Shown here piece by piece: positions 15,373-18,469 of a DNA stretch of 64,000 nucleotides. The stretch is from a virus. Lineage: Duplodnaviria; Caudoviricetes. Position numbers and translations under genes: made by a program. Under the pieces are notes generated by a model, which did no database searches, was not told the origin of the DNA, and worked only from the letters and a program-made list of their open reading frames with translations. Each line of letters opens with the position of its first letter. Within the stretch, counting starts at the first letter, position 1. The stretch lies in the IMG/VR virus record IMGVR_UViG_3300032093_000005. One strand, 5' to 3'.

Positions 15373-15552
15373 TTAGTCTCCACCAGAATCACCAGAAGAA
15401 CCACCAGAACCACTATCAGTATCTAAAGCACATACTTTCTTTTTTGGTGCCATAGCATACTTTACAGTTCTACCATAACAATTTTCTTTGGTTTGTAAAG
15501 GTGGATTACCAAAATCACCTACCTTTTCCATAAACTGCTGAAAAGTTTTCAT
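15373..15552 (-). CDS. Micro-ORF (59 aa) with T4 IP-like N-terminus (not in the ORF track)
   Basis: MKTFQQFMEKVGDFGNPPLQTKENCYGRTVKYAMAPKKKVCALDTDSGSGGSSGDSGGD; CTAAATA at 15568-15574. Confidence 0.65.
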   Translation of the reverse strand: MKTFQQFMEKVGDFGNPPLQTKENCYGRTVKYAMAPKKKVCALDTDSGSGGSSGDSGGD

Positions 15553-15570: not shown

Positions 15571-16005
15571 TTAGAGATAGTCTTTCCTAGTATGATGTTC
15601 CGGAATTACTTTCCCAAGTACGATCCGTAGAAGTCCGTCTTCAAATGTGACTTCCCTGACTTCTGTGTCGTCGGATAAAGTCCACGCTCGTTTAAAACTT
15701 CTGCTAGCCACTCCCTTGTGGATAAACGTCCTATCCGATTCGGAATCTGTTTTTTGTCCTTCGACAAAAAGTTTTCCATATTCTGTGAAAACATTAACCT
15801 CTCCCTTCTTAAATCCTGCAAGTGCAATTTCTAAATGCGACTCAACATTATTTACCTGAACAAGGTTATATGGCGGGTAATTTGTTGTAGTTTCGTGAAG
15901 ATTAAATAAACGATCAAAATATTCGTCCATTCCAATACTATTGCGAGTAATCCTCTCCATCAGAGCAGGAAGATCAGCAGCAGTATATCTTGTGATACTG
16001 GTCAT
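15571..16005 (-). CDS. hsp20: Small heat-shock protein (Hsp20 family)
   Basis: YPPYNL...EIALAGF...HKGVASRSFKRAWTL...FEDGLLRI alpha-crystallin motifs. Confidence 0.95.
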   Translation of the reverse strand: MTSITRYTAADLPALMERITRNSIGMDEYFDRLFNLHETTTNYPPYNLVQVNNVESHLEIALAGFKKGEVNVFTEYGKLFVEGQKTDSESDRTFIHKGVASRSFKRAWTLSDDTEVREVTFEDGLLRIVLGKVIPEHHTRKDYL

Positions 16006-16070
16006 TATTGTAGCTCCTTAAAAAGCGAGTTTGTTTGTGTGGACCCTTACGGCATCCGTATATAATTATA
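16006..16070 (-). promoter_or_regulatory. hsp20 -10 box and structured 5' UTR (ROSE-like thermometer candidate)
   Basis: TATAAT at 16065-16070; hairpin GGATGCC-GTAA-GGGTCC; CTCGCTT-TTT-AAGGAG pairs over the SD. Confidence 0.6.
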
Positions 16071-16079
16071 CTAGATCAT

Positions 16080-16105
16080 AAAAAAAGACGGGTAGGAAAC
16101 CCGTC
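16080..16105 (-). terminator. Intrinsic terminator after regA
   Basis: GACGGGT/ACCCGTC stem plus T7. Confidence 0.82.
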
Positions 16106-16111
16106 CTATTT

Positions 16112-16552
16112 TTATTCGGTATCCTCTACCTTTTTCTTCTTTGCACCAATATTATATTTAGTTTCTAAAATCCAATCTCCCTTGTCCTTATAGGCGAGAA
16201 CCTTGATCTGGTTCAGAGGAGCAATATCTTGAATCTTAGTCAGATCTACAATTTCAATCAAACCCCAATCTGCAAGAAGTTGGGCAATACGATTACGACG
16301 CTGAACATCATTCACAGTCAAGTTAGCATGTTTACCATCAAGAGCAAACAGTTCCTTAAAGTGAACGAGATAATATCTACCTTGCTTGTGCAGAATATGG
16401 CAAGACTGATAGATTTTCTTTTCCTTTCTTGAAGCAACTCCGATACGGGTCAAAGTCTCACGAACCTTTAGAAAATCATCAGGTTCATTGAGAATCACTT
16501 CCACCATTTGGTCGGGCGTCCACTTCACTTCAGGTTCTTGAACTACACTCAT
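16112..16552 (-). CDS. regA: Translational repressor RegA
   Basis: DDFLKVRETLTRIGVAS...QSCHILHKQGRYYLVHFKELFALDG. Confidence 0.96.
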   Translation of the reverse strand: MSVVQEPEVKWTPDQMVEVILNEPDDFLKVRETLTRIGVASRKEKKIYQSCHILHKQGRYYLVHFKELFALDGKHANLTVNDVQRRNRIAQLLADWGLIEIVDLTKIQDIAPLNQIKVLAYKDKGDWILETKYNIGAKKKKVEDTE

Positions 16553-16929
16553 TTTGTTCCTCCAGTTTCAAATTTCGATTTAATAAAATTAAGTTGTTCT
16601 TTAGTAAGAATCCTCAAAGCTTGTTTTGCCTTTTCATTACTATAACCATAATAACGTTTGACATAATCAAGGTCTTTGATTTTATCTTGTCGGAGCCAGG
16701 GAGAAAATCTCTTCTTTTTCCTCAGACTATTTATAAAAAAGTCATATTGCATCTTTTTTGGGAGGAAATGATATTGATTCATTTCATTCGCAAACATTAC
16801 ACAATCAATATGCCCAGATAGACAACGATTGATAACATACGGAGGATATTCCTTCTCAAGCGAAGGGTCTTCTTCAATCAGATTCTGTTTGGTCTGATTG
16901 ATCGAGTTTAACCAGTCCTTCAATTCCAT
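16549..16929 (-). CDS. gp62: Clamp loader small subunit (gp62-like)
   Basis: MELKDWLNSIN...YPPYVINRCLS...YYGYSNEKA; start taken at the internal Met. Confidence 0.92.
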   Translation of the reverse strand: MELKDWLNSINQTKQNLIEEDPSLEKEYPPYVINRCLSGHIDCVMFANEMNQYHFLPKKMQYDFFINSLRKKKRFSPWLRQDKIKDLDYVKRYYGYSNEKAKQALRILTKEQLNFIKSKFETGGTK

Positions 16930-17746
16930 AATTAAATAGCAGTAATTCTTTACGGGTTTTTTGTTCTCGCATATATTCACCAACAGAACGCATTGTATAA
17001 GTCAGATCAAACTCAGCAGCATTCCAGTTCTTGAATCGATTCTTTACAAGTTGGTCAGAATTATAACTTACCAATTGATCCATATTATTAGAATCACAAT
17101 CAGCAGCAAACTTATCGTGATCAAATCCTTTGTGCATTGATCCTTTGTGCCCATAGAGATTATCCTTAATGTCATAAGGAGGATCGAGATACATAAAAGC
17201 ACCCTTGTTTCCATCCATCAGATAATCATACGAATAGTTAGTTATACGCCAGTTTTTGATTAGTTCAGAATACGCAGGCAGTTTTTCAATCCCTCGCATA
17301 GAGAAGTTGGCGTTGGATGCTTGTGGTGAAAATGATGAACTCTCTGTGAGACCGCTGAAAGAGCACTTATTGACAACATAAAAAGCCACAGCACGATCAA
17401 AGTTTGACACAGTTTTGTCATTGATCCGTTCCTTTGATTGGAGGAAAAGTTCTTTTGATTTATCTGGAGTATTATTTGCGTTCTTTAAATCAACAAGTTC
17501 ACTTTTCAAATCATACCCAAACATCTGAAGTTGCTGCCAGAAGTTTACCAGTGGTTCATACAAATCATTCACCCAAATATCTAGGCTGGGATATTTCTTA
17601 GTGATATGAATCGCAACACTTCCTCCACCAAGAAATGGTTCTCGGAACTCATCATAGTTGCGAAGGTCTGGAAAGTAAGGATCCATCTTGACGCAAGCAC
17701 GAGACTTGCCGCCTGGATAACGAAGAGGTGTTTTAAGAGATTTCAT
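16874..17746 (-). CDS. dam: DNA adenine methyltransferase (Dam/D12 class)
   Basis: PLRYPGGKS, EPFLGGGSV, YLDPPY motifs. Confidence 0.92.
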   Translation of the reverse strand: MKSLKTPLRYPGGKSRACVKMDPYFPDLRNYDEFREPFLGGGSVAIHITKKYPSLDIWVNDLYEPLVNFWQQLQMFGYDLKSELVDLKNANNTPDKSKELFLQSKERINDKTVSNFDRAVAFYVVNKCSFSGLTESSSFSPQASNANFSMRGIEKLPAYSELIKNWRITNYSYDYLMDGNKGAFMYLDPPYDIKDNLYGHKGSMHKGFDHDKFAADCDSNNMDQLVSYNSDQLVKNRFKNWNAAEFDLTYTMRSVGEYMREQKTRKELLLFNYGIEGLVKLDQSDQTESD

Positions 17747-18273
17747 TGCACACTTTCAATAAAGTTCATTATAAGTTTATCCTTTTCCTGAAAATAATTT
17801 TTATTAGAAGAAGGACCGCCATTTAAGAAAAAATGTTCTGGTCCAGGATCACAACTGGCGGTAAGATCATTGCTACCAGATTTTCTAATATTATATAACA
17901 TTGATCCAGGAACACAACAAGCTTTTAATTTATCTGGATCACTAAAAATATAGTAATCTGCTGGAATAAAATTTGATACATCTTTATCTTTTCCTCTACC
18001 ATTTTTTACAACCACCCCCCTTACTGCTGTCTCAGACTTATTCCCAAAGGTTACTTTTTTAGACTCATATGTAGTATTATTTCTATCTACCAAATCCCTC
18101 CCAGTTAAATTAACTCTTCGAAGATTTCCATTACTATATGCTTCATACGCTAACTCAATCATCCTACCAACATCAAAATATTGAGTTGGATCAGTATTTC
18201 CTGTTAGGGTAGAAAGAAGTTTGGATAATTTATCTATCTCAATAACTTTCAAGAAATCAATTTTTGTTTTCAT
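17743..18273 (-). CDS. Hypothetical protein, putative PD-(D/E)xK nuclease
   Basis: IELAY helix followed by GRDLVDRNNTTYESKK; ATGA overlap with dam. Confidence 0.55.
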   Translation of the reverse strand: MKTKIDFLKVIEIDKLSKLLSTLTGNTDPTQYFDVGRMIELAYEAYSNGNLRRVNLTGRDLVDRNNTTYESKKVTFGNKSETAVRGVVVKNGRGKDKDVSNFIPADYYIFSDPDKLKACCVPGSMLYNIRKSGSNDLTASCDPGPEHFFLNGGPSSNKNYFQEKDKLIMNFIESVQ

Positions 18274-18469
18274 AATCTTTAGGATGATACTTCAAATATT
18301 CAAAGAAGGTAAGTTTCATTTCTTTCTGCGTCATACCACAATGCTTTGCAGCAGCAGGAAGAGTCAGTTTAGCACGAAACAAACCTTCGTTTGCCTCCTT
18401 TACATTTTCGGGAGTTGTCTTTACAGGTTCTTCTTTTAGAACTTTGTAGTCTATTTTATATAGATTCAT
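18257..18469 (-). CDS. Small hypothetical protein (possible helix-turn-helix)
   Basis: 70 aa, LTLPAAAKHCGMTQKEMK; overlaps the gp44 stop. Confidence 0.7.
   Translation of the reverse strand: MNLYKIDYKVLKEEPVKTTPENVKEANEGLFRAKLTLPAAAKHCGMTQKEMKLTFFEYLKYHPKDYENKN

Follow-up and report, generated by a model that had tools for sequence, protein, structure and literature searches.

The window, as we call the whole stretch of 64,000 nucleotides analysed here (IMG/VR record IMGVR_UViG_3300032093_000005), is part of a T4-like cyanophage, a very abundant kind of virus; the DNA polymerase encoded there shares 88.6% identity with its counterpart in Synechococcus phage S-SRM01. The minus strand carries, in order, a gp62-like clamp loader subunit, regA, hsp20, several small open reading frames (ORFs) and the DNA polymerase (Table 1). 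The window Hsp20 matches that of Synechococcus phage DSL-LC03 at 88% and PDB entry 7CK4 with an E value of 2e-26, and the Pfam HSP20 match of its ORF agrees with the original prediction, which had placed a phage small heat-shock gene downstream of the leader. It is known that hsp20 is a core gene in T4-like cyanophages (PMC3037559); we found no description of the regulation of cyanophage hsp20 in the searchable literature. Directly 3' of hsp20 lies a 59-aa ORF (15373-15552, minus strand) that has no Pfam match and ends in a Gly/Ser-rich tail, and between the clamp-loader genes (16874-18469, minus strand) there are a 70-aa ORF, a 176-aa ORF and a 290-aa ORF that resembles a Dam-like methylase by sequence appearance.

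Table 1. Features of the hsp20 locus and of its leader in the window
Feature	Position	Strand	Basis or remark
regA, translational repressor gene, neighbour upstream of hsp20	16112..16552	-	Pfam Translat_reg, E 3e-44
Predicted intrinsic terminator of regA, 9-bp stem and U-tract	16077..16107 (also given as 16107-16085)	-	Sequence prediction; terminator at the same place in most close relatives
-10-like box TATAAT, without canonical -35	16065..16070	-	Sequence; inferred
Predicted transcription start, 1-2 nt before hairpin I	16058..16059	-	Inferred from -10 spacing; leader ~54 nt
Hairpin I: 4-bp lower stem, bulged G 16053, two C-G pairs, GNRA tetraloop	16041..16057	-	Covariation; core same as Rfam ROSE_3 consensus
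Unpaired A/C-rich linker between hairpins	16030..16040	-	Bulged G residues 27 nt apart here, 24-32 across phages
Hairpin II: ROSE anti-SD UCGCU (16028-16024), bulged G 16026, paired to SD	16014..16029	-	Motif and covariation
Shine-Dalgarno (SD) AAGGAG, 8 nt before ATG (16005)	16014..16019	-	Sequence
hsp20, 144 aa, class A (IbpA-like) small heat-shock protein (sHSP)	15571..16005	-	Pfam HSP20
Codon for R102, aligned to IbpA R93	15700..15702	-	Alignment

The leader of about 54 nt between the TATAAT box and hsp20 forms two hairpins, with the SD inside the second. Both the letters and the two-hairpin fold of the original prediction are present, on the minus strand, which had not been stated; the claimed pairing of UCGCU with the SD leaves G16026 as the one bulged nucleotide, in a register that is conserved and covaries, and the start codon does lie at the distance from the SD that had been claimed. 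A feature absent from that prediction is a bulged G in hairpin I as well (16053), in the same module as that of hairpin II. Searching for the two-hairpin pattern gave a single match in the window and none in 100 shuffles, but since this pattern was written from this very site, conservation is the real control. With a covariance model that had this leader in its seed, one copy was found in the window at 68 bits, with the next match at 8 bits. Neither this model nor a further search detected a second copy in the window, so the window gives no hint of a regulon. The folding energy does not set the leader apart from shuffles (z about -0.25 to -1.2), and by itself it is no evidence for the leader structure. 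For this genome, ViennaRNA prefers a shifted register of hairpin II (G16026-C16013) to the bulged-G register, with -3.3 versus -2.2 kcal/mol at 37 °C and pair probabilities of 0.72 versus about 0.26, and both registers cover the SD. The C required by the shifted register is found in only 60 of 195 viral leaders, whereas the bulged-G register is kept in all of them and covaries, which identifies the latter as the conserved one.

The predicted regA terminator upstream of the leader suggests that hsp20 is transcribed from its own promoter. No -35 box was found at this promoter, and the -35 region falls within the terminator. Among the 195 viral leaders, TATAAT is present in 128, usually 9-13 nt upstream of the bulge in hairpin I, and a T4-late-like TAAATA in 39, mostly 9 nt before it; in some relatives TAAATA replaces TATAAT at about equal distance. 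From this nearly fixed distance to hairpin I we predicted a start just ahead of the hairpin. The leaders of S-PM2 (L321), L085, L086, L116, L424 and L426 have no -10 box adjoining hairpin I and contain a further conserved stretch just upstream, namely a C-run followed by TACGCCAA or TACGCTAC, which in S-PM2 looks like an additional 5' helix of a longer leader. A Pho-box reading of the S-PM2 leader was set aside, as the authors of PMC10976474 found neither PhoB binding nor a phosphate response for that S-PM2 gene.

Viral loci were fetched by protein similarity regardless of their leaders, and cultured phages were added, giving 210 distinct leaders. A strict detector recognized both bulged-G hairpins in 195 of them, against 0.17% of shuffled leaders. 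Eight of the 15 misses were errors of the detector (short spacing or an incorrect start codon), six had hairpin I changed or absent, and one was unchecked; at least 203 of the 210 protein-selected leaders have both hairpins. The six leaders with an altered or missing hairpin I still keep hairpin II, whose bulged-G register was detected in 202 of the 210. Gene and leader occur together in phages of Synechococcus, Prochlorococcus, OM43, SAR11, Ralstonia and Sinorhizobium, and the leader structure is retained across proteins down to 30% identity. Tested in reverse, the leader pattern had 120 viral matches, of which 110 precede a recognizable sHSP gene; for 7 more the gene is cut at a contig end or the match stands before an operon that contains hsp20 (117 of 120 in total). 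The pattern scan of prokaryote genomes gave mostly chance matches in GC-rich DNA, with 13 of 120 located before an sHSP gene.

The original prediction had named covariation among the hsp20 leaders of T4-like phages as a check on the fold, and the compensatory changes that we found back the pairing. As a fair test for hairpin I we used a MAFFT alignment of 44 diverse, protein-selected leaders (A4), in which 90.6% of the cells were paired and 86 double-sided changes were spread over six of the eight pairs; none of 500 shuffles scored as high, and slid controls reached at most 59% paired. Hairpin II is less variable because it holds the SD, and in the model-fitted alignment it shows double changes at the base pair and the upper pair, while in S-B68 the hairpin II stem is wholly rewritten. 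Pair counts from alignment A6 lean towards the model and include pattern-selected rows. We are almost certain that this RNA structure exists and that it covers the SD.

Some records show other arrangements around the gene. In an IMG/VR contig of a T4-like phage (L099:500-1277), the order is regA, twin-hairpin leader, a 74-aa ORF without a Pfam match, and hsp20, so that the leader would control a gene inserted ahead of hsp20. Salicola phage SCTP-2 (L330) encodes a distant Hsp20 that keeps the equivalent of IbpA R93, and has a hairpin II that is at most degenerate and no hairpin I module. Cyanophage-type hsp20 with its leader was also found in genome contigs L236, L262, L270, L286 and L311 (named Lewinella, Thermoplasmata, Nonlabens and others), which are probably phage contigs binned among cellular genomes. 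In the phage records MG065691, MG065686, OR851202, OR845265 and OQ572409, the ibpA gene is either 96-98% identical to that of Salmonella or of the Pseudomonas type and behind a bacterial promoter, and it is likely host DNA.

The leader matches the Pseudomonas ibpA thermometers in motif, position over the SD, two-hairpin layout and gene class, in line with the ROSE-like assignment originally claimed. It has the U(U/C)GCU-SD pairing with a bulged G, lies in the 5' UTR of a class A sHSP gene, and falls within the ROSE-like range of two to four hairpins with a stable upstream one. Rfam ROSE_3 (RF02523) matched it end to end with 19.7 bits (E 0.24), below the 43-bit gathering cut-off, and both hairpin cores are identical to the consensus. 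By motif, it belongs with the short ROSE-like thermometers as a new and widely conserved viral member, for which a heat response would be expected by analogy. The Pseudomonas ibpA short ROSE (RF02523; PMC3669281) and the phage leader have in common two hairpins, about 55-62 nt, the UCGCU-SD pairing with a bulged G, an unpaired AUG and a stable hairpin I of the same core; the phage leader differs by a shorter hairpin I lower stem, an AU-rich linker, and a TATAAT or T4-late-like box upstream instead of a sigma32 promoter. All five tested Pseudomonas leaders of this build are heat-inducible, being repressed at 25 °C and giving 3- to 8-fold more reporter at 42 °C; only hairpin II melts, and it alone suffices for thermoregulation with a 9-fold induction, while hairpin I does not melt and its role was left open (PMC3669281).

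Classical ROSE elements (Bradyrhizobium ROSE and enterobacterial ibpA, with 3-4 hairpins) possess the same SD hairpin and one upstream hairpin with the same bulged-G module, but they are about twice as long, with extra hairpins and with the bulges 55-65 nt apart, compared with 24-32 nt in phages. The cyanobacterial sHSP thermometers (Synechocystis hsp17; Anabaena avashort and avalong) likewise exert translational heat control of a small heat-shock gene, yet their structures are different, and avalong bulges a U instead of a G (PMC4152365). Because the sHSPs of cyanobacterial hosts belong to a clade other than that of the phage sHSPs (PMC3827213), it is unlikely that the phage element came from the host; Prochlorococcus genomes have no sHSP genes (PMC3827213). 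We found no paper on ROSE elements in phages, which agrees with the claim that none had been described, and none on the repeated bulge in upstream ROSE hairpins, in a searchable literature that covers few subscription papers and not the early ROSE studies.

Across the 195 leaders, the median stability at 37 °C is -3.1 kcal/mol for the weak hairpin II and -8.0 kcal/mol for the stable hairpin I. The predicted cost of opening the SD of this leader falls from 5.1 kcal/mol at 25 °C to 3.1 at 42 °C, close to the values for the Pseudomonas, Bradyrhizobium and Salmonella leaders (3.0/1.8 to 4.4/3.5 at 25/42 °C), and deletion of the bulged G in hairpin II raises the predicted cost to 8.2/5.8 kcal/mol. 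Two other leaders of the window cost more to open than the hsp20 leader. Predicted SD opening remains low at 15-30 °C. Since any hairpin opens with heat in such a model, the predicted 38-fold change is not diagnostic, and the computed cost is compatible with a thermometer without proving one.

The module shared by the two hairpins consists of a pyrimidine, the bulged G, a C, a pyrimidine, a loop of 4-8 nt and purine-G-purine, and it is invariant in hairpin I. Four or five pair types alternate at the lower pairs of hairpin I, while the bulged G and the C-G pair beside it are constant. The upper pair types are exchangeable between the hairpins: hairpin I of S-PM2 has the hairpin II type, and S-CREM2 shows the reverse. 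Hairpin I is far from the SD, and removing it or its bulge leaves the predicted SD opening unchanged. The same upstream module exists in Salmonella ibpA (L328), in a Pseudomonas-type ibpA leader and in a Bradyrhizobium ROSE (L674). The phage-trained covariance model R3 matched only 3 of 151 proteobacterial genomes and is too AT-biased, so the proteobacterial leaders were chosen by protein instead. The bulged-G SD hairpin is found in 24 of 27 class A sHSP leaders and the upstream module in 19 of 27, against 1 of 35 and 0 of 35 class B leaders, respectively; owing to common ancestry, the counts do not represent independent events.

E. coli IbpA is reported to repress its own translation through the stem-loops of its leader, including the upstream ones, and the loss of K98 abolishes this repression, while the RNA feature read by IbpA was left open (bioRxiv 10.1101/2020.04.20.050740; PMC10474464; PMC10410725). 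For binding its own leader it needs R93, which packs near Y34 (PMC10474464). In the window Hsp20, R102, Y43 and R106 occupy the R93, Y34 and R97 positions, and an Ala stands at K98; basic residues at both 97 and 98 are thus not found, and Lys is present at positions 88 and 96 instead. Sequence alignment of 234 viral proteins reveals an R at the R93 position in 233 and the aromatic Y34 likewise in 233, an R or K at the R97 position in 167, and a K at the K98 position in only 9. The phage protein therefore resembles the self-repressing IbpA of gammaproteobacteria in being a class A sHSP with Y34, R93 and R97 equivalents and a ROSE leader upstream, but differs from it at the K98 equivalent, and its leader binding is putative. 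R93 may be conserved for structural reasons, given its packing near Y34. Besides, class A membership, R93 and the leader derive from a common ancestry, and finding them together therefore does not count as independent evidence. A class A-like protein without the arginine (L599) lacks both hairpins, and an IbpB without the arginine (L581) retains them, which is consistent with IbpA repressing ibpB in trans.

We propose, giving it an even chance, that the leader is a two-input ROSE-type element, in which SD sequestration would be loosened by heat and clamped by Hsp20 itself. Judging from the ROSE family, the marginally stable hairpin II would block ribosome loading when cool and open progressively with heat. 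By analogy with E. coli IbpA, free Hsp20 oligomers would bind both modules via the conserved arginine and keep hairpin II shut, until heat or a mass of unfolded virion proteins titrates Hsp20 away and translation resumes. The phage would thereby have acquired, together with the gene, a self-contained feedback and temperature switch that requires no host factor. In favor of the two-input model, the split between a weak hairpin II and a stable hairpin I is the division measured for Pseudomonas. A model of temperature only gives no reason for the invariant hairpin I module, which points to a second input, most likely chaperone binding as for E. coli IbpA. Because gene and leader stay together in phages whose hosts differ widely, among them the sHSP-less Prochlorococcus, the product of the gene itself would be the simplest shared ligand. 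However, the rarity of K98 argues against the feedback input, and the sufficiency of hairpin II alone in Pseudomonas, together with the six viral leaders whose hairpin I is altered or missing, weighs against the two-input model.

It seems unlikely, though the reading deserves serious attention, that the leader is a plain RNA thermometer, as originally proposed, in which heat alone melts hairpin II and hairpin I is a protective 5' stem or a folding aid that binds no Hsp20. The architecture is that of the tested Pseudomonas elements, with an autonomous hairpin II and an unmelted hairpin I; hairpin II is marginally stable, and K98 is not conserved, all of which would fit. Yet a protective stem needs pairing rather than an invariant bulged G in a fixed context, and the module is kept from phages to Salmonella while the adjacent pairs turn over. 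Conversely, the hairpins could be an autoregulatory operator only, which binds Hsp20 and senses the folding load in infection with water temperature of minor importance. The twin module, the conservation of R93 and the low predicted SD opening at 15-30 °C agree with this, and surface waters are rarely at 37-42 °C, the temperatures of ROSE assays. We regard it as rather improbable, because every tested Pseudomonas leader of this build responds to heat and hairpin II is kept marginally stable in all phages.

Recognition of the module by another factor (RegA encoded by the neighbor, ribosomal protein S1 or a nuclease), or docking of the hairpins together, has little probability. Although regA is the upstream neighbor in many cyanophages and the spacing between the two bulges is narrow, the module also occurs in bacteria and in phages without an adjacent regA, and the hairpin I loops vary across phages, which argues against loop docking. 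We give hardly any credence to a DNA site (a promoter element or Pho box) or a relic without present function. The 5' arm of S-PM2 hairpin II had been named in PMC10976474 as a putative Pho box, but the compensatory changes and G-U pairs indicate an RNA helix, so that covariation has already largely refuted this reading.

Returning to the two-input model, the bulged-G module of both hairpins may be the site that the chaperone binds when switching off its own synthesis. If the ROSE element works, it would provide a direct temperature or stress input into infection for the abundant T4-like cyanophages. More broadly, we tentatively suggest, with somewhat less than even confidence, that ROSE leaders are built of a repeated bulged-G module that serves as the recognition site for class A sHSPs. 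The phage leader would then be the minimal form, with two modules in 45 nt, and phages would carry gene and site together as a mobile feedback loop, independent of the host, that responds both to protein-folding load in infection and to temperature. The repeated module offers a small and concrete test of how IbpA recognizes mRNA without a known RNA-binding motif, and also a handle on the purpose of the upstream ROSE hairpins.

Twin bulged-G leaders were also seen before other genes. In three Spirochaetales MAGs (L212, L229 and L233), such a leader precedes a gene for a 328-aa protein whose N-terminus is hydrophobic and which belongs to no clear Pfam family, and no sHSP was found in L212. A Hyphomicrobiales MAG (L248/L641) has the full twin bulged-G leader before dnaK, and among 25 alphaproteobacterial dnaK leaders, both hairpins were present in 2, the upstream one in 7 and the SD one in 4.
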